From contig LT962688.1 of the NCBI GenBank assembly GCA_900234795.1, positions 2,160,001 to 2,192,000 of the forward strand: DNA of 32,000 bases. Reading direction: 5' to 3'. This document shows positions 656 to 24,876 of the stretch, in pieces. The notes under the pieces were generated by a model. That model had not been told where the DNA came from. It saw nothing but the letters and a program-made list of their open reading frames with translations, and searched no databases. This DNA comes from Methylorubrum extorquens. Lineage in GTDB: Bacteria > Pseudomonadota > Alphaproteobacteria > Rhizobiales > Beijerinckiaceae. How positions within the stretch are numbered: the stretch's first letter is position 1; every line of letters begins with the position of its first letter. A program made the position numbers and the translations under genes.

Positions 656-840
656 GATCCGGCGGAGTGCGGCCTGCTCAGCGCTGCCGGGGCCTGTGCC
701 GTGCGCGCCGCACCGGCCGATCAGGGCGCGGCACAGCCAAAGATCCCGAATGATGACGCATCAAGGATTTGATACCCAGGCAGTGCGATCCACAGCGATG
801 GAGCCCGCATTAAGGGTTTTGGGACACCGCGTTGGTATCG

Positions 841-2868
841 ATGCTGGATGAGGCTCGGTCCACGATGAACAGCGATACGCTCGATTTACTCGATCAGGAG
901 CTCGGCAAGCGTTGGTTTCAACGCCGTTCGCCGATTCTGAATGCCGCTTTCAGGGCGCAATACGCACAGGCGATGCGCGAAGAGATGGGTCGCGCGTGTC
1001 AGTTGGTGGGCCTGCTCTACGTCGCGTTCGGCGTGATGGACGCGCTCCTCATCCGCGACATGCTCCCCTACCTCATCGCGCTGCGTCTCGTGCTCGGCGT
1101 GGGCTACGTCACTTCGATCATGCTGCAGGTCCGTCGCGGCGCCGATACGCAGACCCTCGAGCTTCAGTGCTCACTTGGCATCTATGTCGGCTTCGCAGCC
1201 TGGCTCTATCTTGCGACCCAGAGTTCCGATGAAACAGCGATCCTCTACTATGCCGGATACGGCTTGATCTTCATGCTGGTCGCGAACCTGTTTTTCAACC
1301 TCAGTTTCAGGTTCGCCCTGCTCTCGTCAGGCCTGATCACCGCGACATTTCTGTTTTGGGCTCTCCGTTCGAATGGGAATTCATCCTACATCATCTGCTT
1401 TAGTTCTTTATATGTACTGAGTTTTCTGCTCACGGCGTTCCTTAATCTCAAGTACAATCGAGAGCGGTACCGCGTGCATTTGAACGCGTGCCGGGCCGAG
1501 CTGCAGCAGCGTGAGGTGGTTCAACGCGGTGAGGAGCTGTTCCGACTGTCCACGACCGACGTTCTGACGGGCTTGGCCAACCGCCGCGCGATCGACAGCG
1601 TCCTGCAGGAACTCTGGCTCGCCAATGTCAACTCGGGGCAGGCGTTCGGCGTGATCCTGATCGATGTCGATTTCTTCAAGCTCTACAACGACCGCTACGG
1701 GCATCAACGGGGCGATAGCTGCCTCGCCGCTTTGGGGGAGGCGATGCGCGGCGCTGCCGATAAGAGGCGGTATGCCATCGGGCGCTTCGGAGGCGAGGAG
1801 TTCGCAGCGCTGTTTCAGGCGGATTCAGCCGAACAGGTTCTCGAATTCGCTGAGGAAGTTCGTCAAGCCGTCGAGGCGTTGCAGATCCCCCATGCAGCAC
1901 GGCGTGATCCGCTCTCCCATGTCACGGTGAGCATCGGAGCGGCGTTCTCTGCAGATGTCGCGGAGGATAAGCCGGAGCGTGCGATTTCCGCAGCTGACGA
2001 CGCTCTCTATGTCGCGAAGGAAGAAGGCCGCAATCGCGCGCGAATTTTCAATGCGAGGATGCGCCATAGCACCGAGAGCGATGATCTGAATGCGGAGATG
2101 CTTCGAGCGGCTGTTACGGATGGGCGCATATCCGCGGTCTTTCAGCCCATCGTCGATGCCTCAAGCGGACGCATCTGGGCCGCGGAGACGCTTATGCGAC
2201 TCAAGGACACGCAAGGCCGTGCGATCTCCCCGGAAACGTTCATCCCTGTCGCCGAGCGCACGGGTGCCATTCTTGAGATGGGCGCATGGATCCTGCGTCA
2301 GGCTTGCGACCTTCTCGCGAGCGAGCCCGAACTACCCATCGTCAGCGTGAACATCTCCGCACGACAAATTTCCGAACCGAACTTCATCAGTTCCGTCGAA
2401 GCCATCGTCCGAGCCGCCGGCATCGCTCCGTCACGCCTTGCTCTGGAGATCACCGAGAGCGGGGAGATCAGTGGCAACCCAGAAGTCGCTCAGTTGATGG
2501 ATCGGCTCAACACGATCGGGATCCGTGTTTGGCTGGATGATTTCGGGACGGGTTTTGCGGGCCTTACCTGCCTGAGTGAACTGCGTTTTGATATGGTGAA
2601 GATCGACCGTTTCTTTGTGCAGAGCTGTGATACCCCGCGTGGGGCAAAGCTGCTCAAAAACATCATCGACTTGGTCAACAATTGCGCGCAGAGACCGATC
2701 GTCGAAGGCGTTGAAGAGGCGTGGCAGATCGACCTTGTGTCGTCCTTCGGCGCGGATCTCTTCCAAGGCTATCACCTCGGCAGGCCAATGCCCCGCAGCG
2801 AACTTAAGCTGATGCTTTCTGAGTATTTACCTTCAAATGAGAATTTAGAAATGCAGCACGGTAGTTGA
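841..2868 (+). CDS. Membrane-anchored GGDEF-EAL protein (diguanylate cyclase / c-di-GMP phosphodiesterase)
   Basis: ORF 832-2868; first ATG at 841 (TTG at 832 is an alternative). About 200 hydrophobic N-terminal residues with several predicted TM helices. GGDEF domain with intact RFGGEEFAALF active-site motif and DVDFFKLYND. EAL domain with ETLMRL, ALEITES, DDFGTG and QGYHLGRP motifs. Confidence 0.9.
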   Translation: MLDEARSTMNSDTLDLLDQELGKRWFQRRSPILNAAFRAQYAQAMREEMGRACQLVGLLYVAFGVMDALLIRDMLPYLIALRLVLGVGYVTSIMLQVRRGADTQTLELQCSLGIYVGFAAWLYLATQSSDETAILYYAGYGLIFMLVANLFFNLSFRFALLSSGLITATFLFWALRSNGNSSYIICFSSLYVLSFLLTAFLNLKYNRERYRVHLNACRAELQQREVVQRGEELFRLSTTDVLTGLANRRAIDSVLQELWLANVNSGQAFGVILIDVDFFKLYNDRYGHQRGDSCLAALGEAMRGAADKRRYAIGRFGGEEFAALFQADSAEQVLEFAEEVRQAVEALQIPHAARRDPLSHVTVSIGAAFSADVAEDKPERAISAADDALYVAKEEGRNRARIFNARMRHSTESDDLNAEMLRAAVTDGRISAVFQPIVDASSGRIWAAETLMRLKDTQGRAISPETFIPVAERTGAILEMGAWILRQACDLLASEPELPIVSVNISARQISEPNFISSVEAIVRAAGIAPSRLALEITESGEISGNPEVAQLMDRLNTIGIRVWLDDFGTGFAGLTCLSELRFDMVKIDRFFVQSCDTPRGAKLLKNIIDLVNNCAQRPIVEGVEEAWQIDLVSSFGADLFQGYHLGRPMPRSELKLMLSEYLPSNENLEMQHGS

Positions 2869-3990: not shown

Positions 3991-4314
3991 ATGGCGGCGA
4001 CCCCGCGCGAGATCAGGCTGACGGAAGAGCGCCGGCGCCTCGACGTGATCTGGGAGGATGGCACGGCCTCCCGCCTCACGGCCGCGACGCTTCGTGCCCA
4101 CAGCCGCAGCGCCGAGACCGTGCGTGCCGGGATTGACGGGCTCCCCCCCGCGCTGCCGCACGACATCGCGATCACCGACGTCGTGCCGGTCGGCGCCTAC
4201 GCTGTGAACCTCGTCTTCTCCGACGGGCACGACCGCGGGATCTTCCCCTGGTCCTACCTGCGCGCGCTCGGCGACGACACGAGCCCGTGCGCGGCCGACC
4301 GCGCGGCAGCGTGA
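3991..4314 (+). CDS. DUF971 protein (gamma-butyrobetaine hydroxylase-like N-terminal domain family)
   Basis: 107 aa. GGAGGA Shine-Dalgarno at 3978-3983. The pattern L-x-V-x-W-x-DG-x-x-S-x-L-x-A-x-x-LR-x-x-S-x-SAE ... Y-A-V-x-L-x-F-SDGH-x-x-GI-F-x-W-x-YLR is the DUF971 signature as I recall it. Confidence 0.8.
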   Translation: MAATPREIRLTEERRRLDVIWEDGTASRLTAATLRAHSRSAETVRAGIDGLPPALPHDIAITDVVPVGAYAVNLVFSDGHDRGIFPWSYLRALGDDTSPCAADRAAA

Positions 4315-4325
4315 GGGAGACGGCG

Positions 4326-6074
4326 ATGAGCGCAGCGCAAGACGCGATTCAGGACGCGACCTCGGAGGTCGCCTGCGACGTGCTGGTGATCGGCGGCGGC
4401 ACCGCCGGGCCGATGGCGGCGCTGAAGGCCAAGCTGCGCAACCCGGCGGCCCGGGTGATCTTGCTGGAGAAAGCCAACGTCAAGCGCTCGGGCGCGATCA
4501 GCATGGGCATGGACGGGCTCAACAACGCCGTCATTCCCGGCTACGCCACGCCGGAGCAGTACACCAAGGAAATCACCATCGCGAACGACGGCATCTGCGA
4601 TCAGGCGCCGGTCTACAAATATGCCGAAAACTGCTTCGAGATCATCCAGGAACTCGACCGTTTCGGCATCCGCTTCCAGCGCGACGGCAACGGCGATTAC
4701 GACGTCAAGAAGGTGCATCATCTCGGCACCTACGTGCTGCCGATGCCCAACGGCGACACCGTCAAGAAGGCGCTCTACCGGCAATTGCGCAAGGCGCAGG
4801 TGCTGATCTCGAACCGCTTCATGGCGACCCGGCTTCTCAACGCGCCCGACGGCGCGGTGGCCGGGGCAGTGGCGGTCAATACCCGCACCGCCGAGTTCCT
4901 GGTGATCCGCGCCAAGGCGGTGATCCTCTGCCTCGGGGCGGCCGGGCGGCTCGGCCTGCCGCATTCGGGCTATCTGTGGGGCACCTACGAGAACGCCGCC
5001 AATTCCGGCGACGGCTATTCGATGGCCTACCACGCGGGGGCCGGGCTCGCGAACCTCGAATGCTTTCAGATCAACCCGCTGATCAAGGACTATAACGGCC
5101 CCGCCTGCGCCTACGTCGCCGGGCCGTTCGGCGCCTATACAGCCAACAGCGAGGGCAACCGCTTCATCGAGTGCGACTACTGGTCGGGCCAGATGATGCA
5201 GGAATTCTACAACGAACTCTCGAGCGGCAAGGGCCCGGTCTTCCTCAAGCTCGACCATCTCCACGCCGACACGGTCTCGGAGATCGAGACGATCCTGCAC
5301 AAGGTCGAGCGGCCCTCGCGCGGACGCTTCCACGAGAACCGCGGTACCGATTACCGCCACCGTATGGTCGAGATGCACATCTCGGAGGTGGGTTTCTGCT
5401 CCGGCCACAGCGCGTCGGGCGTGTTCGTCGACGAATTCGCCCGCACCACCGTGCCGGGCCTGTACTCGGCCGGCGACATGGCCAACGTCCCCCACAACTA
5501 CATGCTCGGCGCCTTCACCAACGGGGCGGTGGCGGGTGAGCACGCGATCGACCATGCGGGCGCGATCGACCTGCCTGAGATCGATGCCGAGGCGGTGGCG
5601 CGCGAGCGCGAGCGGGTGCTGGCGCCGACGCGGCGCGCGGACGGCATTCCCCCGAACCAGATCGAGTACAAGACCCGCCGCTTCGTCAACGACTACCTGC
5701 AGCCGCCCAAGGTCACGGCGAAGATGGAGATCGGGCAGCGGCGCTTTGCCGAGATCCGCGAGGATCTGGAGACGCGGATGGTCGCCCGCGACAGCCACGA
5801 GCTGATGCGGGCGCTGGAGGCGTCCTCGATCCTCGACTGCGCCGAGATGGCCGCCCACGCCTCGCTCTACCGCACCGAGAGCCGCTGGGGCCTCTACCAC
5901 AACCGCACAGACTACCCCGAGAAGAACGACGCGGAGTGGTTCTGCCACACGATCCTGCGGAAGGTGGAGGGCCGCATGGTCAGCGAGAAGCGGCCGATCA
6001 CGCCGTACATCGTGCCGATCGAGGCGGACGAGCGCGGCGCCTACGACCGCCAGCGTGTCCGCAAGCAGGCTTGA
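4326..6074 (+). CDS. FAD-dependent flavoprotein of the fumarate reductase/succinate dehydrogenase superfamily, adenylylsulfate-reductase alpha (AprA)-like
   Basis: ATG at 4326 after GGGAGA (4314-4319). 582 aa. N-terminal dinucleotide fold DVLVIGGGTAGPMAA; later LGAAGRLG, SGDGYSMAYHAGA, GLYSAGDMA. Length and overall pattern resemble AprA-type proteins more than SdhA/FrdA (recollection, not a search). An adjacent small ferredoxin is in the AprB-like position. Confidence 0.8.
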   Translation: MSAAQDAIQDATSEVACDVLVIGGGTAGPMAALKAKLRNPAARVILLEKANVKRSGAISMGMDGLNNAVIPGYATPEQYTKEITIANDGICDQAPVYKYAENCFEIIQELDRFGIRFQRDGNGDYDVKKVHHLGTYVLPMPNGDTVKKALYRQLRKAQVLISNRFMATRLLNAPDGAVAGAVAVNTRTAEFLVIRAKAVILCLGAAGRLGLPHSGYLWGTYENAANSGDGYSMAYHAGAGLANLECFQINPLIKDYNGPACAYVAGPFGAYTANSEGNRFIECDYWSGQMMQEFYNELSSGKGPVFLKLDHLHADTVSEIETILHKVERPSRGRFHENRGTDYRHRMVEMHISEVGFCSGHSASGVFVDEFARTTVPGLYSAGDMANVPHNYMLGAFTNGAVAGEHAIDHAGAIDLPEIDAEAVARERERVLAPTRRADGIPPNQIEYKTRRFVNDYLQPPKVTAKMEIGQRRFAEIREDLETRMVARDSHELMRALEASSILDCAEMAAHASLYRTESRWGLYHNRTDYPEKNDAEWFCHTILRKVEGRMVSEKRPITPYIVPIEADERGAYDRQRVRKQA

Positions 6075-6088
6075 GACCGGAGACATCC

Positions 6089-6322
6089 ATGCCCCTCGCC
6101 CACCAGCCCAGTGCGGTCCCGGTCACCGTGGACCCGGAAAAATGCATCGCCGACAAGGGCTGCACGGTCTGCGTCGATGTCTGCCCCCTCGACGTCCTGC
6201 GGATCAGCGACCTCACCGGCAAGGCCTACATGAAGTACGACGAGTGCTGGTACTGCATGCCCTGCGAGACCGACTGCCCGACCGGCGCCGTCACCGTCCA
6301 GATCCCCTACCTGCTGCGGTGA
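6089..6322 (+). CDS. 2x[4Fe-4S] ferredoxin (short AprB-like partner)
   Basis: ATG 6089, 14 nt after the flavoprotein stop, preceded by GGAGAC. 77 aa with two cluster motifs: C-x6-C-x2-C-x3-CP (CIADKGCTVCVDVCP) and C-x2-C-x2-C-x3-CP (CWYCMPCETDCP). Confidence 0.85.
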   Translation: MPLAHQPSAVPVTVDPEKCIADKGCTVCVDVCPLDVLRISDLTGKAYMKYDECWYCMPCETDCPTGAVTVQIPYLLR

Positions 6323-6327
6323 GCCCG

Positions 6328-7299
6328 ATGCCCATCACCGATCCGTTCGAGGATTTTGGCGAAGTTGCCGAGATCGCCCGCGGCCTCGACGATGCCGACC
6401 CGGCGGTGCGCCGCGTCGCGGTCCTCGCGCTCGCCGAGACCGCCGACCCGGAGGCCGTGCCCCCGCTCGCCCGGGCCGCCGCCGATCCCGATCCGGACGT
6501 GCGGCGGCAGGCGGCCCTCTCGCTCGGCGGCTTCGACGGACCCGAGACGGCGGCGGCGCTGGCGGGCGCGCTCACCGATCCCGACCGTTCGGTCGCGACG
6601 GCGGCGGCCGAGAGCCTGACGGAGTTGAAGGATGCCCGCGCCGGCGATCCGCTGCTGCCGCTCGCCGGGCACGGCGATGCCTTCGTGCGGGCGGCGGCCC
6701 TGCGGGCGCTTCGGGGGCTGAGGCTGCCCGCCGCGCTCGGGCCCGCGGTTGCGGCGCTCGGCGATCCGGAGCCGGCGGTGCGGGCGCAGGGCGTCGGCGT
6801 CATCGCCTACCTGAAGCGGGAGGAGGCGCTGCCCTCGCTCATCGCCGCGACCCGCGACGCGGATGCCGAGGTGCGCCGCGCCGCGGTCGGCGGCCTCGCC
6901 TTCGCCCGCCACGCCAGCGCCGTCGAGGCGATCGCGGCAGCCCTGCACGACGCCGAGTGGAGCGTGCGCGAGACCGCCGCCGAGGCCCTTGGACGGGCCG
7001 GGACGGCCGAAGGTGCCGAAGCGAGCGGCGAGGTGCTGATCGCGGCGCTCGGCGACGCCACATGGCAGGTTCGCCAGAAGGCCCTGCGCAGCCTCGGGCG
7101 GCTCAGGTTCCGCCGCGCCGTGCCGACGGTGCTGGCGGCGTTGTCTGAGGAGATGGCGTCCCTGCGCAAGGAGGCGGCGGCCGCGCTCGGCGAGATCGCC
7201 GACCCGGCCGCGCAAGCGGGTCTGGAGGGCATCGCGAACGATCCCGATCCGGACGTGCGCAAGACCGCGCGCTGGGCGCTGGCGCGGCTGGCGGCGTAG
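6328..7299 (+). CDS. HEAT-repeat (PBS-lyase HEAT-like) protein
   Basis: ATG 6328, 5 nt after the ferredoxin stop. The longer track ORF from 6055 reads across the ferredoxin gene out of frame. About 10 repeats of D-P/A-x-x-x-V-R-x-x-A-x-x-A-L-G/A, e.g. DPAVRRVAVLALAE, DPDVRRQAALSLGG, DAEVRRAAVGGLAF, DPDVRKTARWALAR. Confidence 0.8.
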   Translation: MPITDPFEDFGEVAEIARGLDDADPAVRRVAVLALAETADPEAVPPLARAAADPDPDVRRQAALSLGGFDGPETAAALAGALTDPDRSVATAAAESLTELKDARAGDPLLPLAGHGDAFVRAAALRALRGLRLPAALGPAVAALGDPEPAVRAQGVGVIAYLKREEALPSLIAATRDADAEVRRAAVGGLAFARHASAVEAIAAALHDAEWSVRETAAEALGRAGTAEGAEASGEVLIAALGDATWQVRQKALRSLGRLRFRRAVPTVLAALSEEMASLRKEAAAALGEIADPAAQAGLEGIANDPDPDVRKTARWALARLAA

Positions 7300-7443: not shown

Positions 7444-7480
7444 GATACGGTTCCCGCTTTGATCAAGCGGAAACCGTATC
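7444..7480. terminator. Strong hairpin at the convergent junction between the HEAT-repeat gene and the Crp/Fnr gene (possible bidirectional terminator)
   Basis: GATACGGTTCCCGCTT (7444-7459), loop TGATC, AAGCGGAAACCGTATC (7465-7480): 16-nt arms with one mismatch. It overlaps the regulator's stop codon (7479-7481). There is no U-tract on either side, so intrinsic-terminator function is uncertain. Confidence 0.4.
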
Positions 7481-8243
7481 ACCCCTCGGTCAGGACGATC
7501 TCCTGCAGCCGCCCGGGCCGAACCAGGCGGATATGCGTCGCATCGACGGACACGATGCCCTCGCGCTGGAACCGCTTGAGCATCATCGTCACCCATTGCC
7601 GGGTCGAGCCGACGAGGGCCGCGAGTTCGTCGTGGGTGATGCGGCGGCGGATGATCACCGTGCCGTTCTCAGGGGTCCCGTAGAGGTCGCCGAGATTGAG
7701 AAGAAGCTGCGCCAGCCGCTCGATCACCGAGCGTGTGCCGAGCATCTGCGCCATGGCGGTGTAGCAGCGCCCCTTGGCCTCCAGCGCGGCGATGAGGCAG
7801 AGCGCGAAGCCCGGCATCTGGCGGATCAGCCCGCGCAGGGTCGCGCTCGACAGCACGGTGACGCGCACCGGCTCGATCGCCACGCCCGACCATTGATGGC
7901 AGCCGCCGCCATAGATGCTCGGGCCGCCGATGAAGTGGCCCGGCGTCCAGTAGGCCAGCGTCACCTGCCGGCCCGACGGCCCCGAATAGAACACCCGGAC
8001 CCGCCCCTCCTCGATCAGGAAGATGCCCTCGTGCGGCGCCCCTTGGGTAAAGACGCTCTCGCCGGGCGCGAGGCTCACCGTGCGGCCGGCGGCGCGCACC
8101 CGAGCGCTCTCGGCGGGGGTGAGCCCGTCGAGGAAGCCCGCTCCGTCGTCGAGCCCCTCGACCGTCTCGCTGAGGAACAGCGCACTGGCGATCAGGGGCG
8201 CCGGACGGCGGGGTTCGGACAGGGCGAGCGGTGCCGACGACAT
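7479..8243 (-). CDS. Crp/Fnr-family transcriptional regulator
   Basis: ORF 7479-8378; I favour the ATG at 8243 (MSSAPLAL...), with 8291 as an alternative. cNMP-binding-like beta-roll (GESVFTQGAPHEGIFLIEEGRVRVF). C-terminal HTH (ITHDELAALVGSTRQWVTMMLKRFQREGIV). Confidence 0.85.
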   Translation of the reverse strand: MSSAPLALSEPRRPAPLIASALFLSETVEGLDDGAGFLDGLTPAESARVRAAGRTVSLAPGESVFTQGAPHEGIFLIEEGRVRVFYSGPSGRQVTLAYWTPGHFIGGPSIYGGGCHQWSGVAIEPVRVTVLSSATLRGLIRQMPGFALCLIAALEAKGRCYTAMAQMLGTRSVIERLAQLLLNLGDLYGTPENGTVIIRRRITHDELAALVGSTRQWVTMMLKRFQREGIVSVDATHIRLVRPGRLQEIVLTEG

Positions 8244-8343
8244 GGGAACCTCGGGAAAACGTTCGGGTGCGAGGCCCAGAGCATGACCCATCTCCCGCTC
8301 TCGATTATCGACGCGGCCTGCTTGAGAGCAATTCCAAATCGGG

Positions 8344-8353
8344 CTGTCGACAG
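8344..8353. promoter_or_regulatory. 10-bp perfect palindrome CTGTCGACAG in the divergent regulator/ABC-transporter control region
   Basis: Read directly, in a lower-GC intergenic stretch (8244-8562). It does not match TTGAT-N4-ATCAA or TGTGA-N6-TCACA, so it is only a candidate operator. Confidence 0.2.
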
Positions 8354-8562
8354 AACACATTCTTCTCCTGTCAAACATTTCGCGAGAAGAGATTTTCTTC
8401 GGCTCAAGAACAGTTGCGCATCGATCCAGAAACTCGACTTTCCAACGAAATTAATTGCTCGCCGCAACGGCTGTCCGAACGGCACATCCACGAGGTCGCC
8501 GCCCTCGCGAGCGGCCGACGCACTCGCCTCGACGGACTTGCCTCGCCTCACGGAGCCTCACG

Positions 8563-10005
8563 GTGACACAGCATATCCCGCTCACCCGCCGCCTCGCAGC
8601 GCTCCTCCTGACCGCCACGGTACTCGGCGCGGCGGGCTCCGGGGCAGCCCGGTCCGAGACGATCCGGGTCGCCGTCGGCACGCAGGACACCACGATCAAT
8701 TGCGCCACCGGCGGCCTGCTGATCCGCGAGTTGAAGCTCCTAGAGAAGTTCCTGCCCCGCGACGGGCGCTACAAGGACGCGACCTACGACATCCAGTGGC
8801 GCAACTTCACCAGCGGCGCGCCGCTCACCAACGAGATGGTGGCGGGCAAGCTCGATCTCGGGGCGATGGCCGACTTTCCCGGCTCGCTCAACGGCCACGC
8901 CTTCGCCAAGGCCGGGCGCCGCTCGCTGTTCATCTCGGTGCTCTCGGGCAGCCTGCACGGCAGCGGCAACGGCGTCGTCGTGCCGAAGGAATCCCCCGTG
9001 CAGTCGTTCGCCGAACTCAAGGGCAAGACGATCTCGGTGCCGTTCGCCTCGACCGCGCACGGGCTGCTCTTGCGGGCGGTGAAGGCGCAGGGATGGGAGC
9101 CCGGCCGCGACGTCACCATCATCACCCAGGCCCCGGAGGTGGCGGGCGCCGCGCTGCTCGCCAACAAGATCGAGGCACATGCCGACTTCGTGCCCTTCGC
9201 CGAGCTGTTCCCCTGGCGCGGCTTCGCCCGCAAGATCTACGATGGCGCCCAGGCCGACGCCCCGACCTTCCACGGCGCGCTCGCCGATGCCGACTATGCC
9301 GAGAAGTACCCGGAGATCGTTACCGCCTACCTGCGCGCGGCACTCGAAGCGGACCGGTTGATCGCCGCCGAGCCGGAAAAGTATTCCGAACTCATCGAGC
9401 GGGTGACGGGGATCGAGGCGGAGGTCGCCTACCTGTTCCACGGGCCGCTCGGCCTGCAGACCCGCGACGTGACCTGGAAGCCGGCCTACCGGCAGGCGGT
9501 AAAGACCTCCTTCGAGACGCTCAAGCTGCTGAAGAAGGCCGATTCCGACATCGACCTCGACCGCTTCGTCGATGACCGCTTCATCCGCGCGGCGGCGGCG
9601 CAGGCCGGTCTCGACTACGAGGCGCGGCTCAGGGACGAGGCGCCGCTGCCGCTCGCCGCGCAGGACAGCGCAACGGGCAAGCCGATCACTGATCCGTCCC
9701 GCGTGGCGCAACTCTGGATCCGCGGCGAGGACAAGGTCCGCCCCTACGCCTCGCCGGAAGCGGCGTTCGCGGCGCTCGCCGAGCTGGAAGGCCAGGGGCG
9801 CGAGGCCCGCGCCGTCTACGCCCAGGATCGGGGCAACGGGATCAAGCTGTTCGCCACCCAGGCCTGGTACGTGCGCGACGCGCAAGGGCATCTGAGCGCC
9901 TTCCTGCTCAAGGGCGACGCACAGGCCCACGCCGCGGCGAAAGGGGGCGACGTGCTCGATTTCGCCGCCGCGCGGAGCGGCCACGCGCGGCTCTCGGCCC
10001 GATGA
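8563..10005 (+). CDS. Periplasmic ABC-transporter substrate-binding protein (NitT/TauT, NMT1/SsuA-like) with an extra ~135-aa C-terminal domain
   Basis: GTG start at 8563 gives VTQHIPLTRRLAALLLTATVLGAAGSGAARS (signal peptide). The earlier part of ORF 8455-10005 is Arg/Pro-rich junk. The SBP body ends near DRFVDDRFIRAA (~nt 9600). The rest is an additional domain (see findings). Confidence 0.85.
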   Translation: MTQHIPLTRRLAALLLTATVLGAAGSGAARSETIRVAVGTQDTTINCATGGLLIRELKLLEKFLPRDGRYKDATYDIQWRNFTSGAPLTNEMVAGKLDLGAMADFPGSLNGHAFAKAGRRSLFISVLSGSLHGSGNGVVVPKESPVQSFAELKGKTISVPFASTAHGLLLRAVKAQGWEPGRDVTIITQAPEVAGAALLANKIEAHADFVPFAELFPWRGFARKIYDGAQADAPTFHGALADADYAEKYPEIVTAYLRAALEADRLIAAEPEKYSELIERVTGIEAEVAYLFHGPLGLQTRDVTWKPAYRQAVKTSFETLKLLKKADSDIDLDRFVDDRFIRAAAAQAGLDYEARLRDEAPLPLAAQDSATGKPITDPSRVAQLWIRGEDKVRPYASPEAAFAALAELEGQGREARAVYAQDRGNGIKLFATQAWYVRDAQGHLSAFLLKGDAQAHAAAKGGDVLDFAAARSGHARLSAR

Positions 10006-10889
10006 GCCCCTTGATGAACCCCTTGATGAGCCCGTCGGTGAGCGCCTCCGGAATCGAGACGGCCGCCCCGGTCCGCGTGCCGCGCGGGCGGCCGGTCCGG
10101 TTTGCGCGACCATCGACGCTCGGGCGCTTGGCGCTGCGCGGCGTCGCCCTGGCCCTGAGCCTGCTCGCTTGGCACCTCGCGGCGAGCAGCCGGCTCGATC
10201 TCGGCCTCGTCACCTTCCGCAACGTGCCGACTCCGGCGGCCGCCGCGCAGGCGGCCTGGGCGCTGGTCCACGCCCCCGCGCTGCCGACCCATCTGGGCGC
10301 CAGCCTCGCCCGGGTGCTGTCGGGCTTCCTCGCCGCTTTGGGCGTGGGCGTCGCCCTCGGCCTCGCCATCGGCCGGTCGCGGCTCGCCCGCGACCTGCTG
10401 CTGCCGCCGCTCGAAGTGCTGCGCCCGATCCCGGCGGTGGCCTGGATCCCGCTGGCGATCCTGATGTTCCCGTCCTCCGAGGTCTCGATGGCCTTCATCA
10501 CCTTCACGGGCGCGCTGTTCCCGATCCTGCTCAACACCGTGCACGGGGTGGAATCGGTGCATCCCCGGCTTGTCGCCGCCGCCCGCAGCCTCGGCGCGGG
10601 CGATGCCGCGATCCTGCGCGAGGTGATCTTGCCGGGCGCCGCGCCCAGCATCGTGACGGGGGCGGCGATCGGCATGGGCACGGCGTGGTTCTGCCTCGTG
10701 ACCGCCGAGATGATCTCCGGCCAGTACGGGATTGGCTACTTCACCTGGGAATCCTATACACTGCAGAACTACGACGACATCGTCGTCGGCATGCTGCTGA
10801 TCGGCCTCCTCGGGATGGGATCCAGCCTCGTCGTGCGCTGGCTCGGCGACCGGGCGACACCCTGGGTCGGCGCGGGAGGCCAGCGATGA
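10002..10889 (+). CDS. ABC-transporter permease (NitT/TauT family)
   Basis: ATG overlaps the SBP stop (ATGA at 10002-10005). Multi-TM protein with an EAA-like loop (AARSLGAGDAAILREVILPGAAPSIVTG). In-frame alternative starts at 10014, 10026 and 10038. Confidence 0.9.
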   Translation: MSPLMNPLMSPSVSASGIETAAPVRVPRGRPVRFARPSTLGRLALRGVALALSLLAWHLAASSRLDLGLVTFRNVPTPAAAAQAAWALVHAPALPTHLGASLARVLSGFLAALGVGVALGLAIGRSRLARDLLLPPLEVLRPIPAVAWIPLAILMFPSSEVSMAFITFTGALFPILLNTVHGVESVHPRLVAAARSLGAGDAAILREVILPGAAPSIVTGAAIGMGTAWFCLVTAEMISGQYGIGYFTWESYTLQNYDDIVVGMLLIGLLGMGSSLVVRWLGDRATPWVGAGGQR

Positions 10890-11767
10890 GCGCGGGAATG
10901 GCACCGGTCCAGGCCGGCCCTCTCACCGGCACCGATCCTCTTGCCGACACCGATCCCTTTGCCGACGGTCACGTCGCCATCCGGGATGGGGCGATCCGGC
11001 TCGGTCGGGGCGATGCGGCGTTCGACGTGGTCGAGAACATCAGCTTCGACATCCCAGGCCGCCAGTTCGTCTGCATCCTCGGGCCCTCGGGCTGCGGAAA
11101 GTCGACCCTGCTCGGGGCGGTGGCCGGGCACCTCGCCCTGTCGCGCGGCAGCGTCAGCCTCGACGGGCGGGCGATCGCCGGGCCGCATCCCGACCGCGGC
11201 ATCGTCTTCCAGCAGCACACCCTGTTCCCCTGGCTCAGCGTGATCGACAACGTCGCCTTCGGCATGAAGATGAAGGGCGTCGGCCGCAGCGAGCGCCGGG
11301 AACGGGCCCGGGCGCTGCTGGCGCAGGTCGGGCTGTCCGACTTCGCCGAGCGCTATCCGGCCGAATTGTCGGGGGGCATGCAGCAGCGGGTGGAGATCGC
11401 CCGCGCGCTGATCAACCGGCCTCGGGTCCTGCTGATGGACGAGCCGTTCGGGGCACTCGATGCGCAGACGCGGCTGACGATGCAGGAACTGCTGCTCGAC
11501 ATCTGGACGCGCCACCGCACCACGATCCTGTTCGTGACGCACGACATCGACGAGGCCCTGTTCCTGGCGGATCGGCTCGTCGTGATGACGCCGCGGCCGG
11601 GGCGCATCCTCGACGACATTCCCCTTGATTTCGGGCGCCCGCGGGACCGCGGCCTGATCACCGATCCGCGCTTCACGGCGATCAAGCAGCGCTGCCTCGC
11701 GCTCCTTCACAGCGATCCCGGCCATGTGCCGCTCGCCCGCTTGAGCCCGATCGGAGTTCCGGCATGA
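10886..11767 (+). CDS. ABC-transporter ATP-binding protein (NitT/TauT family)
   Basis: ATGA overlap with the permease stop (10886-10889). Walker A GPSGCGKST, signature LSGGMQQR, Walker B VLLMDEPFGALD, H-loop VTHD. Confidence 0.92.
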   Translation: MSAGMAPVQAGPLTGTDPLADTDPFADGHVAIRDGAIRLGRGDAAFDVVENISFDIPGRQFVCILGPSGCGKSTLLGAVAGHLALSRGSVSLDGRAIAGPHPDRGIVFQQHTLFPWLSVIDNVAFGMKMKGVGRSERRERARALLAQVGLSDFAERYPAELSGGMQQRVEIARALINRPRVLLMDEPFGALDAQTRLTMQELLLDIWTRHRTTILFVTHDIDEALFLADRLVVMTPRPGRILDDIPLDFGRPRDRGLITDPRFTAIKQRCLALLHSDPGHVPLARLSPIGVPA

Positions 11768-12420
11768 CCTCGAATGCCCCCTCGTCGCCGACCATCGCGT
11801 ACTATTTCAGCTTCCTCTCGCTGTGGTCCTATGTCGGCAGTCGCGCCTTCCGCGACCTCGCCGAACGGAACGGCGCGCGGATCGTCTACAAGCCGGTCGA
11901 TCTGATGGCAGTCTTCGCCGCCGGCGGCGGCAAGCCCGTCAAGGAGAGGCCCCTGCAGCGGCAGGCCTACCGCCTCGTCGAAATGCAGCGCTGGCGCCGC
12001 ATCCGCGGCATCCCGCTGGTGCTGCACCCGAAATTCTACCCGGCCGACCCCTCCCTCGCCCACCGGGTCCTGCTGGCCGCCCTCGACGAGGGCAGCGCGG
12101 TCGCCGACTTCGTCCATGCCGGCCTCAGCGCCGTCTGGGCGGACGAACGCGACATCGCCGATCCCGGCACGATCATCCGGCTCGCCGATGCGGCCGGGCT
12201 CGACGGGAAACGCCTGCTCGCCCGAGCCGACGAGCCGGCGTTCCGCGAGGCCGAGGCGGCTCTGACCCGCGAGGCGATCGGGCGGCAGGTGTTCGGGGCG
12301 CCGTTCTATGTCTACCGCGATGAGCCGTTCTGGGGTCAGGACCGGCTCGACCTGCTGGAGGCGGCGATCTCGGGCTCGGACGCGCCGATCCCGCTGCCGG
12401 ACCTCTCCGCTTCCGGCTGA
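11764..12420 (+). CDS. DsbA-family thioredoxin-fold protein, 2-hydroxychromene-2-carboxylate isomerase-like
   Basis: ATGA overlap with the ATPase stop (11764-11767). IAYYFSFLSLWSYVGS near the N-terminus and GAPFYVYRDEPFWGQDRLDLLE near the C-terminus are characteristic of HCCA-isomerase/DsbA-like proteins (recollection). Confidence 0.8.
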   Translation: MTSNAPSSPTIAYYFSFLSLWSYVGSRAFRDLAERNGARIVYKPVDLMAVFAAGGGKPVKERPLQRQAYRLVEMQRWRRIRGIPLVLHPKFYPADPSLAHRVLLAALDEGSAVADFVHAGLSAVWADERDIADPGTIIRLADAAGLDGKRLLARADEPAFREAEAALTREAIGRQVFGAPFYVYRDEPFWGQDRLDLLEAAISGSDAPIPLPDLSASG

Positions 12421-13745
12421 GCCCGGCTCTGCCCGAGCAGGGCGTTGAGCAGGATGGCCGCGATCGCGGTGAGCAGGATCGGATCCTTCACGATCGGCCC
12501 GAACGCGTCGGGCACGGCGCGGAAGAAGAGCGGCTGCACGATCGGGATCAGGCCGATCCCCAACGAGGCGGCGATGATCAGCGCGTCGCGGCTGCCCGCG
12601 CGGGCGTAATCGACCTGGGCCAGGATGCGGATGCCGGTGGCTGCCACCATGCCGAACATCACCAGCGCCGCCCCGCCGAGCACCGGCTGCGGGATCGAGG
12701 CCGCCAGATAGGCGACCTTGGGCACGAGGCCGAGCACCAGCATGATCCCGCCGGCGGCCGCGCAGACCCAGCGGCTGTGCACGCCGGTGAGTCCGACGAG
12801 GCCGACATTCTGCGAATAGGACAGGTAGGGAAACGTGTTGAGCAGGCCGCCGATCAGCGTGCCGAGCGCGTCGGCGCGCAGGCCCCGGCGGATGTCCTCG
12901 GTCCCGATCTTGCGCCCGGTCATGACGCCGAGCGCCAGGAACATCCCGGTCGCCTCGATGAAGACGATCGTCATCACGAGGCACAGGATCAGGCAGGGCA
13001 CGAGGTGGAAGGTCGGCAGCCCGAACTGCAGGGGCAGCACCACCCGCAGCCACGGTTCGGCGCCCAGGCCCTCGAAGCTCGTCCAGCCGAGTGCCAGGGT
13101 GACGGCGTATCCGAGCCCGATCCCGAGGAGCACGGCGACGCGCCCGACGAAGCCCGGACCGAACCGGGCAATGAGCAGGGTCGCGGCGAGCACGCCCGCC
13201 GCCACCGCGACCGTGCCGGGCGCACCGAACGCGGCGGTGCCCGCACCCCCGCCCGCCCAGCCGACGGCGACGCGGGTGAGCGCGATGCCGATCATCAGGA
13301 GGATCGTGCCGGTCACGACCGGTGGGAAGAACCGCATCACCTGGCCGATGAAGGGCGTGACAAGGAGCCCGTAGAGGCCGCCGACGATCACCGCGCCGTA
13401 GATGCCGGTGAGGCCGACGCCGGGTATCGCCGCGATGGCGAGCAGCGGCTGGATCGCCACCGCGGTCACGCCCATGATGACGGGAAGCCGGATGCCGAAC
13501 GGGCCGATGCCCACCGTCTGGATCAGCGTGGCGATGCCGCAGGCGAACAAGTCGGCGTTGATGAGGAGCGCGATCTGGTCCTTCGGCAGGTGCAGCGCCC
13601 CGCCGACGATCAGCGGCACGGCGATGGCGTTGGCGTACATGACGAGCACGTGCTGCAAACCGAGCACGAACAGGCGCGGCGCGGGCGGCACCGCATCGAC
13701 GCCGTCGCGCGGCGGGCCGCCGGGAAGGGGATCGACCGGCCTCAT
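12336..13745 (-). CDS. Nucleobase:cation symporter-2 (NCS2, xanthine/uracil permease-type) transporter
   Basis: 469 aa. LGLQHVLVMYANAIAVPLIVG, multiple TM segments and SYSQNVGLVGLTGVHSRWV are typical NCS2 motifs. The start ATG overlaps the stop of the upstream monooxygenase gene (ATGA at 13742-13745). Confidence 0.88.
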   Translation of the reverse strand: MRPVDPLPGGPPRDGVDAVPPAPRLFVLGLQHVLVMYANAIAVPLIVGGALHLPKDQIALLINADLFACGIATLIQTVGIGPFGIRLPVIMGVTAVAIQPLLAIAAIPGVGLTGIYGAVIVGGLYGLLVTPFIGQVMRFFPPVVTGTILLMIGIALTRVAVGWAGGGAGTAAFGAPGTVAVAAGVLAATLLIARFGPGFVGRVAVLLGIGLGYAVTLALGWTSFEGLGAEPWLRVVLPLQFGLPTFHLVPCLILCLVMTIVFIEATGMFLALGVMTGRKIGTEDIRRGLRADALGTLIGGLLNTFPYLSYSQNVGLVGLTGVHSRWVCAAAGGIMLVLGLVPKVAYLAASIPQPVLGGAALVMFGMVAATGIRILAQVDYARAGSRDALIIAASLGIGLIPIVQPLFFRAVPDAFGPIVKDPILLTAIAAILLNALLGQSRAQPEAERSGSGIGASEPEIAASSRSSRS

Positions 13746-14788
13746 CCCTTCACTCGCGAAAACACCTGCGCGGCGAAGCGGGCCATCTCCGCCTCGAACG
13801 GCTGGAATTGCAGCATGAACAGCTCGATTCCCGCCGCGTGGAAGGCGCGGATGCGCTCGGCCACCCCATCGTAGCTGCCGACGAGCCCGGCCGCCGTGCC
13901 GCCGTTGGTGCCGACATGGTGCGCGGCCGCCGCATCGGTCTTGGCGAACATCACGCTCGCCGCGTCCGTGCGCGCCCGGGTGTCGGCGCGGATGGCCTCA
14001 TCGCGGCGGCTCAAGCTCAGAAGCCGGGCGAATTCGTCCTGCGCCTCGGCTTCCGTCTCACGGGCGATCACGAAGGCCGAGAGCCCGTAGCGCAGACGGC
14101 CCTGCGCGGCCGGGCGCCGGGCGACGTCGGCGATGAGATCGGCGACCGCGGCCAGCGGCTGGCCGTTGATGAACCAGACGTCGCCGTGATCGGCCACCAG
14201 CGCGCGGGCCGGCTCGGACTCGCCGCCGACATAGATCGCCGGCCGCGCCCGGTAAGTGCCCGCGGGCTTGAGCTGATAGTCCTCGACGCGGAAGTGCCGG
14301 CCCTCGTGGGTGACGCGCTCGCCCCGCAGCAACCGGTCCACCAGGGCGATCCATTCGCGGCCATAGGCGTAGCGCTCGTCATGGGCCGGGAACGGCAGGC
14401 CGGCCCGCTCGAATTCGGCGCGGTTCCAGGCGTTGACGAGGTTGAGGGCGAAGCGCCCCCGGCTGACCTGCTCGATCTGCAGCGCCATCTTGGCGAGCAA
14501 CACCGGATGGTAGAGCCCCGGCTTGATCGCCGCGATGATCTCGATCCGCTCGGTGAGCGCCGCCAGCGCGGCCGAGGCGGTCCAGGCCTCCAGCTGGTCG
14601 CGGGTCTCGTCGTAGGGGTTCACCGTATGCTGGGCGACGAGGACGGAATCGTAGCCGAGGCGCTCGGCCTCGAGCACGAGGGCGCGGTTGCGCGCCCAGG
14701 AGGCGTCGTGCGGCTCGTCCGGATCGTGGCGGGCGGCGCGGGAGCCGTGGACCGGCGCCCAGACGCCGAAGCGAAGCGGATGGCTCAT
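13742..14788 (-). CDS. Luciferase-like (LLM) flavin-dependent monooxygenase, SfnG/SsuD-clade-like
   Basis: Only the last 348 aa of track ORF 13742-16222 are real, starting at MSHPLRFGVWAPV (ATG 14788). Contains RGRFALNLVNAWNRAEFERAGLPFPAHDERYAYGREWIALVDRL and GRHFRVEDYQLKPAG. These resemble dimethylsulfone/alkanesulfonate monooxygenases as I recall them. Confidence 0.85.
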   Translation of the reverse strand: MSHPLRFGVWAPVHGSRAARHDPDEPHDASWARNRALVLEAERLGYDSVLVAQHTVNPYDETRDQLEAWTASAALAALTERIEIIAAIKPGLYHPVLLAKMALQIEQVSRGRFALNLVNAWNRAEFERAGLPFPAHDERYAYGREWIALVDRLLRGERVTHEGRHFRVEDYQLKPAGTYRARPAIYVGGESEPARALVADHGDVWFINGQPLAAVADLIADVARRPAAQGRLRYGLSAFVIARETEAEAQDEFARLLSLSRRDEAIRADTRARTDAASVMFAKTDAAAAHHVGTNGGTAAGLVGSYDGVAERIRAFHAAGIELFMLQFQPFEAEMARFAAQVFSRVKG

Positions 14789-14793
14789 CGCGC

Positions 14794-15762
14794 TCACCCG
14801 CGTCCTGCCGGCGGCTGCCAGAGCGATACGGCGGTGGCGTCGAGCCGGCGCGGGATCAGCCCGGCCTCGTGGAAGGTGTCGGCGATGGCCTGCTGCTCGG
14901 AGAGCGCGGCCCGATCGACCGCCTTGACCGCGTAGGAGCGCCGCTCGTTGACGGTGGCGACCACCGCCGGCGGCAGGTCTCCCCAGATCGGCGCCAGCAG
15001 CGCGACGGCCGCCGACGGGTTGGCCTTCACCCATTGTCCCGCCTCGACCAGGGCGGAAAAGACCGTGGCGACGACCTCGGGCTGCTCGGCGGCGAAGCTG
15101 TCGTTGACCGTGTAGTAGCGGTTGTAGCTCGACAGGCCGGTGGCGTCGGTCAGCACCCGCACCGGGCGCTTGGCCTGTACGATGGCCAGGAACGGATCCC
15201 AGATCGACCACGCCTCGATGCCGCCCTGCTCGAACGCCGCGAGCCCGTCCGCCGCCTCCAGATAGGCCGGGCGGATGTCGGCGAATCGCAGGCCCCCCCG
15301 CTTCAGCGCGCCCGCGAGGATGAAGTGGCAGCCCGAGCCCTTCGAGACGCCGACCGTACGGCCTTTCAGATCCGCGATCGTGCGGATCGGCGACTCGTCC
15401 GGCACGATGATCGCCTCGGCCTGCGGCGAACCGGCCTCCATAGCGTAGAAGGTCAGCGGGGCTCCGGCCGATTGGGTGAAGATCGGCACCGCGTCGGCCA
15501 CATCGGCGTGGAGATCGACCGCGCCGGTGTTCATCGGTTCGAGCACCTTGGTGAACAGGTGCCAGCTCACGCCGAGCCCTTGCGCGCCGAGCCGCTCCTC
15601 CAGGGTGCCCCGCGCCTTCAGCACGGTGAGGAGCGTCGAGGAGCGCTGATAGCTGAGCTTCACCGTCCGTCCGGCGCGGGCCGGACCGGAGCGACCGAGG
15701 ACGAGGCCGGCGGCGAGTGTGGCACTCGATGAAAGGGCGAAGTGGCGGCGGGTCAGGCTCAT
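14794..15762 (-). CDS. Periplasmic sulfonate-type (SsuA-like) substrate-binding protein
   Basis: Real start MSLTRRHFALSSSATLAAGLVLG (twin-arginine-like signal) at ATG 15762; the upstream part of track ORF 14794-16146 is out-of-frame. SBP-like body (TIADLKGRTVGVSKGSGCHF, EAWSIWDPF). The start overlaps the cytochrome c stop (ATGA at 15759-15762). Confidence 0.85.
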   Translation of the reverse strand: MSLTRRHFALSSSATLAAGLVLGRSGPARAGRTVKLSYQRSSTLLTVLKARGTLEERLGAQGLGVSWHLFTKVLEPMNTGAVDLHADVADAVPIFTQSAGAPLTFYAMEAGSPQAEAIIVPDESPIRTIADLKGRTVGVSKGSGCHFILAGALKRGGLRFADIRPAYLEAADGLAAFEQGGIEAWSIWDPFLAIVQAKRPVRVLTDATGLSSYNRYYTVNDSFAAEQPEVVATVFSALVEAGQWVKANPSAAVALLAPIWGDLPPAVVATVNERRSYAVKAVDRAALSEQQAIADTFHEAGLIPRRLDATAVSLWQPPAGRG

Positions 15763-16343
15763 CGGGTCTCCGTGTGCGCGGTGGGCCGGGCGGAAGGGCG
15801 AGCGGAGGGATTCTGCGGCGCGATGTCGGGGCGCGGATCGGCGGTGAAGCCGTCGCGGTTCGGCATGGCGACCCTGGGCAGGGAGGCCGCATCGAGGCTT
15901 GCCTCCTCCGGCAGCAGGCCGTTGAGGTGCAGCACATAGGCGCTGACCGCGTAGGTTTCGTCCGGGCTGAGCGATTGCGGCGCGTCGAACGGCATTGCCC
16001 GGCGCACGTAGTCGAACAGGGTCGTGGCATAGGGCCAGAAGCTGCCGACCGTGCGCAGGGGTTTTGCGCTCGCGAGGCTGCCCCGGCCGCCGGCCAGCGG
16101 CTCGGCGGCGGCCCCCTCGCCGCGGGCGCCGTGGCAGCCGGCGCAACGCGCGGCGAACAGGACCGCGCCGTCGCGCACGCTGCCGTGGCCGGGCGGCAGG
16201 CCCTGGCCGTCGGGCCGGACATCGATGTCCCAGGCGGCGATGGTCTCAGGGCTTGCTGGGCGGCCGATGCCGAGGGGGTCCGCCGCGGCCGGGCCGGCGA
16301 GGGTGAGGCTCAGGACGAGCGGGAGAAGCGCCTCAGGCCGCAT
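15759..16343 (-). CDS. Monohaem c-type cytochrome, SoxD/SorB-like partner of the molybdoenzyme
   Basis: Signal peptide MRPEALLPLVLSLTLAGPAAA. One CxxCH (CAGCH). WDIDVRPDGQGLPPG and FWPYATTLFDYVRRAMPF motifs, as in SoxD-type cytochromes (recollection). The start overlaps the upstream gene end by 11 nt. Confidence 0.8.
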   Translation of the reverse strand: MRPEALLPLVLSLTLAGPAAADPLGIGRPASPETIAAWDIDVRPDGQGLPPGHGSVRDGAVLFAARCAGCHGARGEGAAAEPLAGGRGSLASAKPLRTVGSFWPYATTLFDYVRRAMPFDAPQSLSPDETYAVSAYVLHLNGLLPEEASLDAASLPRVAMPNRDGFTADPRPDIAPQNPSARPSARPTAHTETR

Positions 16344-17553: not shown

Positions 17554-17554
17554 C

Positions 17555-18595: not shown

Positions 18596-18643
18596 GATCG
18601 TTCTTTTATTTGCGAGATCGAGATAAGATCTATTCATATCCTT

Positions 18644-18658
18644 TTGTATTATGTACAA
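18644..18658. promoter_or_regulatory. Palindrome TTGTA-N5-TACAA in the AT-rich divergent control region (LysR-type T-N11-A-like box candidate)
   Basis: Read directly: cttTTGTAttatgTACAAgtc. The 145-nt divergent intergenic region (18596-18740) is very AT-rich against a GC-rich background. Confidence 0.3.

Positions 18659-23226: not shown

Positions 23227-24876
<1,650 letters not shown>

Follow-up and report, generated by a model that had tools for sequence, protein, structure and literature searches.

A predicted NosL-fold domain lacking the NosL metal ligands at the C-terminus of a sulfonate-type substrate-binding protein of Methylorubrum extorquens

The metallochaperone fold of NosL consists of two beta-beta-alpha-beta units in S. 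denitrificans and has a fold relative in the organomercurial lyase MerB; the protein carries a lipidation site (Cys38), three Cu(I) ligands that are strictly conserved (Cys62, Met64 and Met145 in the S. denitrificans protein) and Zn ligands (Cys59, Cys88 and Asp92) that are not universal among NosL proteins, Cys88 and Asp92 being swapped in clade II, so that position 92 is a cysteine there, and some NosL homologues are found outside nos clusters (PMC8457098). In sulfur scavenging, the asfRABC system of P. putida S-313, in which a binding protein and an ATP-binding cassette (ABC) transporter are joined by a reductase/ferredoxin pair and by a regulator of the LysR type, is required in all its parts for aromatic desulfonation (PMC4267179). 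Here we analyze a locus with likenesses to both systems, located in a 32,000-nucleotide stretch of the Methylorubrum extorquens genome (assembly GCA_900234795.1, contig LT962688.1, positions 2,160,001 to 2,192,000, forward strand; hereafter, the window), in which the gene at positions 8563–10005 encodes a substrate-binding protein of the sulfonate/taurine type with an additional C-terminal domain. The presence of such an extension had been proposed in an earlier reading of the same DNA made from the letters alone (the sequence-only reading). The gene and its product are laid out as follows.

8563–10005 (stop codon included), forward strand: gene for a periplasmic substrate-binding protein with a C-terminal NosL-fold domain, 480 residues
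8563–8655, forward strand: predicted Sec-type signal peptide, residues 1–31; the mature protein would begin with ETIRVA
8656–9597, forward strand: SsuA/TauA-like (NitT/TauT family) two-lobe core, residues 32–345
9598–9696, forward strand: linker with one short helix, residues 346–378, containing DSATGKPITD, the equivalent of the NosL CxCGM metal loop in the hhalign mapping
9697–9978, forward strand: NosL-fold domain proper, residues 379–472, placed by AlphaFold2, Foldseek, hhalign and Pfam

The extension as a whole spans about 135 residues (346–480, nucleotides 9598–10002). The sequence-only reading had located it at 9600–10005; it is indeed found there, although the proposed start falls one base out of frame, the codon boundary being 9598 or 9601. 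Since Pfam, hhalign and Foldseek (the latter applied to a template-free model) agree with each other, we consider it very likely that the extension, taken by itself, is a homologue of NosL in fold and ancestry, as that reading had suggested. The NosL family PF05573 is the sole Pfam match of the extension (22.2–22.3 bits, E 1.9e-4, with a cut-off of 24 bits; profile positions 22–124 of 131), and it also matches 32 of 34 orthologous segments (best E 2.8e-7), which represent one family and, hence, are not independent of each other. A profile-profile comparison by hhalign of 20 named NosL proteins with a broad alignment of the extension (29 sequences, down to 23% identity) yielded a probability of 97.6% and an E value of 2.9e-12 over 112 columns, corresponding to residues 50–178 of S. 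denitrificans NosL. Foldseek comparison of the isolated-domain model with the PDB returned five significant matches, all of which are NosL (7og7, 7znq_L and 7osf/g/j_H; the sixth match had an E value of 1.3), with 7og7 at the top (E 1e-5, template modelling (TM) score 0.66, root-mean-square deviation 2.9 over 117 columns, 24% identity). Direct sequence searches were less informative: phmmer with the single extension sequence found nothing meaningful in the PDB (best E 0.94, a pyridoxamine-phosphate oxidase), an extension profile ranked NosL 7og7 first among PDB sequences, albeit weakly (E 0.24), and NCBIfam contained no model matching the extension. The resemblance covers nearly the whole of mature NosL, which we attribute to common ancestry, and it extends to the setting, as the window protein, like NosL, would be extracytoplasmic and associated with an ABC transporter.

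The extension is also well conserved. A comparison with the 120 best homologues (70–99% overall identity to the window protein; Methylobacterium, Bradyrhizobium, Tardiphaga, Pseudomonas, Xanthobacteraceae and others; nearly all of approximately 461–491 residues, with one miscalled open reading frame (ORF) of 566 residues) showed it to be gap-free in all 120; identity to the window protein averages 84% over the core, as against 56% over the linker and 62% over the domain. AlphaFold2 predicts a domain topology of strand-strand-helix-strand followed by three strands, a helix, a strand and a final helix; the predicted local distance difference test (pLDDT) values are 85–96 for residues 340–470 in the full-length model and 88.8 for the extension modelled alone without templates. 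According to these models, the extension is a conserved folded domain, and the opposite case considered in the sequence-only reading, a lineage-specific disordered tail, is excluded by its gap-free presence in the 120 homologues and by the pLDDT range. The linker reaches pLDDT 85–95 in the full-length model vs. 65–69 in isolation, and this difference suggests that it packs against the core. Judging from the sequence comparisons, the domain is under selection, because it shows no indels in the 120 orthologues, retains a mean identity of 62% and is kept in members that are only 23–35% identical. Four residues numbered from the start of the extension (D23, G27, I30 and D32) are invariant among the orthologues and fall where the alignment places the CxCGM loop of NosL. 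Across the broad family, the sole invariant positions are W40, F102 and A108, and the corresponding NosL columns are aromatic or identical as well.

The residues by which NosL binds metal are invariant in the alignment of the 20 named NosL proteins. Their equivalents in the window protein, according to the hhalign mapping (extension numbering), are the following.

NosL Cys59: gap
NosL Cys62: Thr26
NosL Met64: Lys28
NosL Cys88: Ala51
NosL Asp92: Ala55
NosL GAMG loop with Met145: deleted

Unlike in NosL, both the Cu ligands (C62/M64/M145) and the Zn ligands (C59/C88/D92) are missing altogether, and the extension contains neither Cys nor Met, as is also the case in 115 of the 120 orthologues. In addition, NosL is a free lipoprotein with an N-terminal lipobox Cys, in contrast to a C-terminal domain inside a 480-residue protein. 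The lipid anchor, the CxxCGM loop, the Cys/Asp Zn ligands and the Met loop all having been lost, the domain is, as far as its residues can tell, unable to carry Cu(I) or Zn in the way of NosL and is not a functional NosL. The sequence-only reading had suggested that the domain could contribute a metal site; with all ligands replaced or deleted, this is not supported for Cu or Zn by the NosL mechanism. Genes of the nos type (NosZ, NosD or NosY families) were detected neither in those window ORFs that were scanned nor among the genes called at the related loci that were inspected.

A divergent clade adds a further aspect to this comparison. In 11 of the 29 sequences of the broad alignment, a pair of cysteines, never a single one, occupies the columns of Thr26 and Ala55, i.e., those of NosL Cys62 and Asp92 (for example, residues ~375 and ~404 of member P0155, or the protein encoded at 8001–9458 of locus L086). 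These two positions must lie close together in NosL, because both bind the same Zn ion. Quite likely the cysteine pair of the divergent clade forms a disulfide that replaced the metal site, and the clade of the window protein would later have lost that disulfide too.

The domain-bearing architecture is widespread. When 1.84 billion representative proteins were scanned by HMMER for matches to the extension profile (E <= 1e-3), only 197 clusters were retrieved, and in all long matches the domain is located C-terminally to the same type of binding protein. The sequence-only reading had envisaged that the domain might be separately encoded in other organisms; no convincing stand-alone copy was found among these 1.84 billion proteins, the short matches being fragments of substrate-binding proteins or partial, chimeric-looking ORFs, none of them a complete domain behind a signal peptide of its own. 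Likewise, no family member without the domain was seen among the matches to the domain-bearing subfamily. A pattern scan covering one genome per species confirmed relatives in at least 573 genomes, of which the best 80 belong mostly to Methylobacterium/Methylorubrum and Pseudomonas, and also to Bradyrhizobium, Cupriavidus, Ralstonia and a metagenome-assembled genome of Verrucomicrobiaceae; Methylorubrum thiocyanatum is the closest among the matches listed (88% over the domain). Furthermore, 47 plasmid or chromid records carry relatives (Paraburkholderia, Rhizobium, Sinorhizobium, Bradyrhizobium, Acinetobacter, Acidithiobacillus and others), and the domain is kept in members down to 23% identity, some of which look actinobacterial by composition. 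The fusion is old and stable. In precomputed Pfam tables, faint or weak NosL matches appear on a few members.

As an aside on architecture, one metagenomic representative (P0143, 779 residues) joins a HEAT-repeat protein in frame with the binding protein and shows a lipoprotein-like signal midway along the sequence. This is probably a read-through gene call; it indicates that, in the respective organism, a HEAT gene directly precedes the gene for the binding protein.

The gene itself is contained in a mechanically called ORF (8455–10005, forward strand), the translation of which holds all residues quoted in the sequence-only reading. The most likely true start, as judged by sequence comparison, is the GTG at 8563 (VTQHIPL...), giving 480 residues, because a 99%-identical database protein of the same length (P0001) begins there. 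N-termini of the 120 orthologues are hydrophobic and variable, mostly ending in A-x-A ahead of the conserved ETIRVA, and the cleavage site was placed by this alignment; the signal peptide of the precursor is of the ordinary A-x-A type without a lipobox Cys. Export via the twin-arginine (Tat) route, as suggested by TRRLAAL in the window protein, was rejected, the RR motif being present in just 13 of the 120 orthologues.

Preceding the extension is a two-lobe periplasmic binding fold of the NMT1 type, nearest to SsuA and TauA by both Foldseek and phmmer. Pfam NMT1 and NMT1_2 match the first two thirds of the protein, and phmmer against the PDB yielded TauA (E 1e-16) and SsuA (E 1.7e-15). The full-length AlphaFold2 model, obtained without templates (pLDDT 80, predicted TM score (pTM) 0.82), matched TauA 6ssy (E 4e-20) and SsuA 3ksj/2x26 (E 8e-19) in Foldseek; these structures of 289–308 residues span roughly half to two thirds of the model, with TM scores of 0.79–0.85 by target length and ~0.53 by query length. 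The SsuA-family model TIGR01728 scores 109 bits (cut-off 163.5), its match ending at residue 377 of the mechanical ORF (residue 341 of the protein), and TIGR01729 scores 79.7 bits (cut-off 304). Because both scores are under the NCBIfam cut-offs, the binding protein is, on sequence grounds, a subfamily separate from these curated families. The window also encodes a second NMT1_2 binding protein (17555–18658, reverse strand), of ordinary length, which ends with '...DSRFFEAAQAEA', aligned to '...DDRFIRAAAAQA' of the 480-residue protein; the core fold can be taken as complete at '...DDRFIRAAAAQA', since the ordinary-length protein stops at the aligned point, which is also where the sequence-only reading had put the end of the fold. 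The end of the TIGR01728 match, this shorter neighbor and the lengths of TauA and SsuA thus bear out the claim of the sequence-only reading that a complete binding fold is followed by some 135 extra residues.

Compared with SsuA/TauA (TIGR01728; PDB 2x26, 3ksj, 6ssy), which provide the top sequence and structure matches for residues 32–345 and share the two-lobe fold as well as a permease and an ATPase of the NitT/TauT type, the window protein is only 22–24% identical and remains under the family cut-off. Moreover, the solved relatives do not have the separate domain of ~135 residues, and the window gene is linked with a flavoprotein-ferredoxin-HEAT oxidoreductase instead of SsuD/SsuE or TauD in the same operon. 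The nitrate/bicarbonate-binding proteins NrtA/CmpA (PDB 2g29) belong to the same broad class, are longer than SsuA/TauA owing to C-terminal additions and appear among the Foldseek matches to the full-length model. A relationship between their C-terminal additions and the extension was considered and rejected, as the isolated domain significantly matches NosL only, with no NrtA/CmpA chain listed.

Two motifs of the core, TQDTTINCATGG (residues 41–51) and DFVPFAELFPWRG (residues 208–220), are nearly or fully invariant and show the lowest pLDDT of the core (<50). The former includes a nearly invariant Cys47, which is absent in divergent members, e.g., P0155 and P0176. These motifs may be ligand-dependent loops of the binding cleft.

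The binding-protein gene is embedded in a compact cluster, the other members of which are listed below.

4287–6074, forward strand: FAD-containing flavoprotein, cytoplasmic, of the fumarate-reductase/adenosine phosphosulfate (APS) reductase superfamily (PRK08275); the start is perhaps ATG 4326
6089–6322, forward strand: ferredoxin of the 2x[4Fe-4S] type, 77 residues, in a different frame under the mechanical ORF 6055–7299
6328–7299, forward strand: HEAT-repeat (PBS-lyase-like) protein, 323 residues (PF13646, E 5e-55)
7479–8378, reverse strand: divergently oriented regulator of the Crp/Fnr family (PF00027, PF13545)
10002–10889, forward strand: ABC transporter permease, its start overlapping the binding-protein stop codon (PF00528, E 1.2e-23)
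10886–11767, forward strand: ABC transporter ATPase, 293 residues, its ATG overlapping the permease stop (PF00005, E 1.3e-32)
11764–12420, forward strand: DsbA-like thioredoxin-fold protein, overlapping the ATPase stop by 4 bases

The flavoprotein matches NF006131 (PRK08275) at 1096.8 bits (cut-off 587), and the named proteins closest to it are fumarate reductases and the alpha subunits of APS reductase, the models of all of these (aprA included) being far under their cut-offs. Translation of the ferredoxin frame is almost identical to the called ferredoxins of a Bradyrhizobium and a Pseudomonas locus (L001 and L003), and plasmid counterparts of the gene are annotated as ferredoxin; the possibility that ORF 6055–7299 encodes a ferredoxin-HEAT fusion was rejected by frame analysis, which resolved two separate genes. 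Because the flavoprotein and the HEAT protein both match the fused 898-residue model PRK13800 (HEAT forming its C-terminal part), with the ferredoxin gene lying between them, their sequences suggest that they work as one complex. None of the flavoprotein, the ferredoxin and the HEAT protein has a signal peptide, and all three are expected to be cytoplasmic. The permease shows SsuC/TauC/NtrB matches, all of them sub-cut-off.

This flavoprotein-ferredoxin-HEAT-ABC importer set constitutes a six-gene operon that recurs in Alpha-, Beta- and Gammaproteobacteria. In 83 related loci, the permease gene is adjacent to the binding-protein gene in all 83, the ATPase gene is present in 82 and the HEAT gene in 70, and the flavoprotein gene is found within 10 kb of the binding-protein gene in 67; some of the contigs end early. 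The operon also surrounds the distant member P0155 (domain 33% identical) and occurs on plasmids, where annotated copies carry generic names only. A GntR regulator replaces Crp/Fnr in the Pseudomonas, Burkholderia and Cupriavidus versions. A DsbA-like gene occupies the equivalent position in only one of the 83 loci (L015) and hence probably does not belong to the core of the system.

Further genes of the window and of related loci point to organosulfur metabolism. Neighbors in the window include a luciferase-like monooxygenase, a sulfite-oxidase-like molybdenum enzyme, the second SsuA-like binding protein, an acyl-CoA-dehydrogenase-like protein and a Cys/Met pyridoxal-phosphate enzyme. TauD and a further NMT1 transporter are found near the Pseudomonas loci, and an NtaA/DmoA-family monooxygenase with an SsuA-like transporter near the Cupriavidus locus. 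At locus L088 (1433–7169), the divergent member P0176, apparently a lipoprotein, is followed by a permease, an ATPase, a sulfatase and a formylglycine-generating enzyme, a layout that hints at uptake of a sulfate ester or another organosulfur compound. An organosulfur role is inferred because the nearest structures bind taurine or alkanesulfonates and because sulfur-scavenging genes recur nearby, and the uncharacterized operon probably belongs to organosulfur scavenging in soil and rhizosphere.

Of the described systems, asfRABC (AsfA reductase, AsfB ferredoxin, AsfC binding protein) resembles the window operon in its parts, as it clusters genes for a flavoprotein similar to fumarate reductase and for a ferredoxin with those for a binding protein and its ABC transporter; asf serves in sulfur scavenging (PMC4267179). 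Unlike asf with its LysR regulator, operons of the window type have Crp or GntR, and a HEAT-repeat gene belongs to the window operon. The published primers asfAF1all and AsfBtoA had no match in the window at <=3 mismatches and none at <=2 mismatches in ~88 related loci, where the few 3-mismatch sites fell outside the flavoprotein genes; at the primer site, a canonical AsfA would read LSGMEF, and the window flavoprotein reads LANLEC. Identity with asfRABC was therefore not upheld, the primers having no match and no source naming members asf or AsfC, in a comparison made by description and primers; the operon is at most a relative of asf.

Taken together, these observations are best accommodated, in our view and with moderate confidence in the explanation as a whole, by a metal-free NosL-fold accessory module on the receptor of an organosulfur importer that feeds an oxidoreductase. 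The product of 8563–10005 is, by sequence and predicted structure, the solute receptor of a NitT/TauT (sulfonate/taurine-type) ABC importer, with 10002–10889 as its permease and 10886–11767 as its ATPase. An ancient fusion placed a NosL-homologous domain at the C-terminus of this receptor, where the fold was kept and the metal site lost. The well-packed linker may hold the domain in a fixed position on the receptor, as supported by the full-length pTM of 0.82 and by the higher linker pLDDT in context. The domain may then act as a non-metal accessory module, either shaping or capping the entrance for a bulky organosulfur anion or offering an extra docking surface for the importer. From the gene neighborhood, the importer would feed the cytoplasmic flavoprotein-ferredoxin-HEAT oxidoreductase, the likely purpose being to scavenge the sulfur of a sulfonate, a sulfate ester or some comparable organosulfur compound.

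A different use of the same domain would be to dock a periplasmic partner, tethering the receptor to a sulfatase, an outer-membrane uptake component or the importer for substrate hand-over. By analogy with NosL, which attaches to NosD, the periplasmic subunit of the NosDFY ABC complex, and was solved as a NosDFYL subunit (7osf, 7znq) whose chains are among the sole structural matches of the domain, such a role is conceivable; it would also suit a domain conserved despite having no metal site, and one member is encoded beside a sulfatase and its maturation enzyme. We nevertheless regard it as unlikely, given that the operon, whose flavoprotein, ferredoxin and HEAT protein are all expected in the cytoplasm, includes neither a conserved gene for a periplasmic partner nor a NosD-like gene, and that the linker seems packed rather than flexible. 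A related and more speculative version, which we consider rather doubtful, is that a fold known from metal trafficking, that of NosL, now serves a different purpose as a hand-over module, which would be fixed to the solute-binding protein and either capture the bulky, non-sulfonate part of a complex organosulfur substrate or dock the receptor to a periplasmic partner. If true, it would add to ABC import a step not known for this transporter family, and the cysteine pair would record a metal site turned into a disulfide-stabilized or ligand-contacting surface.

Retention of a binding function is open to a similar weighing. The invariant D23, G27, I30 and D32 in the segment aligned to the CxCGM loop, the cysteines of 11 of 29 sequences, always together and exactly at the NosL Cys62/Asp92 columns, and the fold relationship of NosL with MerB (PMC8457098) could all speak for a second small-molecule site or a non-copper cation bound via the D-x-x-T-G-x-P-I-T-D loop or via the cysteines of the divergent clade. 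The window protein and 115 of 120 orthologues, however, have no Cys or Met in the extension, two residues alone are insufficient for a NosL site, a covarying periplasmic Cys pair is more simply read as a disulfide, and the broad-family invariants W40, F102 and A108 suggest residues of the fold and not of a new site; residual binding thus appears improbable to us. Far less probable still is a functionless relic, in which the binding protein would simply have kept a NosL remnant in decay: none of the functional NosL residues survives and the domain evolves faster than the core (62% vs. 84% identity to the window protein), but all 120 orthologues have it complete and free of indels, it is retained in at least 573 species genomes and by members as little as 23% identical, its compact fold is confidently predicted by AlphaFold2, and no domain-less member was seen among the matches to the domain-bearing subfamily.

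Several points weigh against the preferred reading of a metal-free accessory module on an organosulfur importer. The lid role and the docking role of the domain are guesses. With regard to homology, the Pfam-type lines are partly interdependent, all orthologues being one family, and the window protein's own PF05573 score is below the curated cut-off. The suggested substrate class derives from family resemblance and neighborhood, with TIGR01728 below cut-off; in addition, the flavoprotein falls outside the clade targeted by the published asfA primers. Public annotation of family members reads 'ABC transporter substrate-binding protein' or 'nitrate-binding, putative' and gives no ligand, partner or phenotype. 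Finally, the former metal loop has kept the conserved acidic residues D23 and D32 and could therefore still accommodate a hard cation or some other ligand.

In the literature library searched, no paper dealt with a NosL domain fused to a solute-binding protein or with the flavoprotein-ferredoxin-HEAT operon. The analysis defines a widespread subfamily of sulfonate-type binding proteins with a previously unrecognized extra domain, including many copies on rhizobial and Burkholderia plasmids. In practical terms, the occurrence of the NosL fold in a fused and apparently metal-free form calls for caution against annotating such matches as copper chaperones. More generally, it would be a clean example of how the fold of a metallochaperone can be put to new use once the metal is gone.

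Some additional features of the window were noted in the course of this analysis. The second binding protein adjoins the sulfite-oxidase-like molybdoenzyme (16333–17706, reverse strand) and the luciferase-like monooxygenase (13742–16222, reverse strand), the luciferase-like domain being only the last ~320 residues of an 826-residue mechanical ORF; the genes of 13742–18658 look like a separate sulfonate-type sulfur-scavenging unit. Upstream of the cluster, a GGDEF-EAL protein of 678 residues is encoded at 832–2868 (forward strand), with no evident link to it. Two forward-strand ORFs in different frames, 23251–23868 and 24118–24876, match the N-terminal part (positions 1–192) and the C-terminal part (positions 332–489) of the Cpn60/GroEL profile, respectively, and may derive from a groEL copy that is frameshifted or disrupted, or else reflect a sequencing error.

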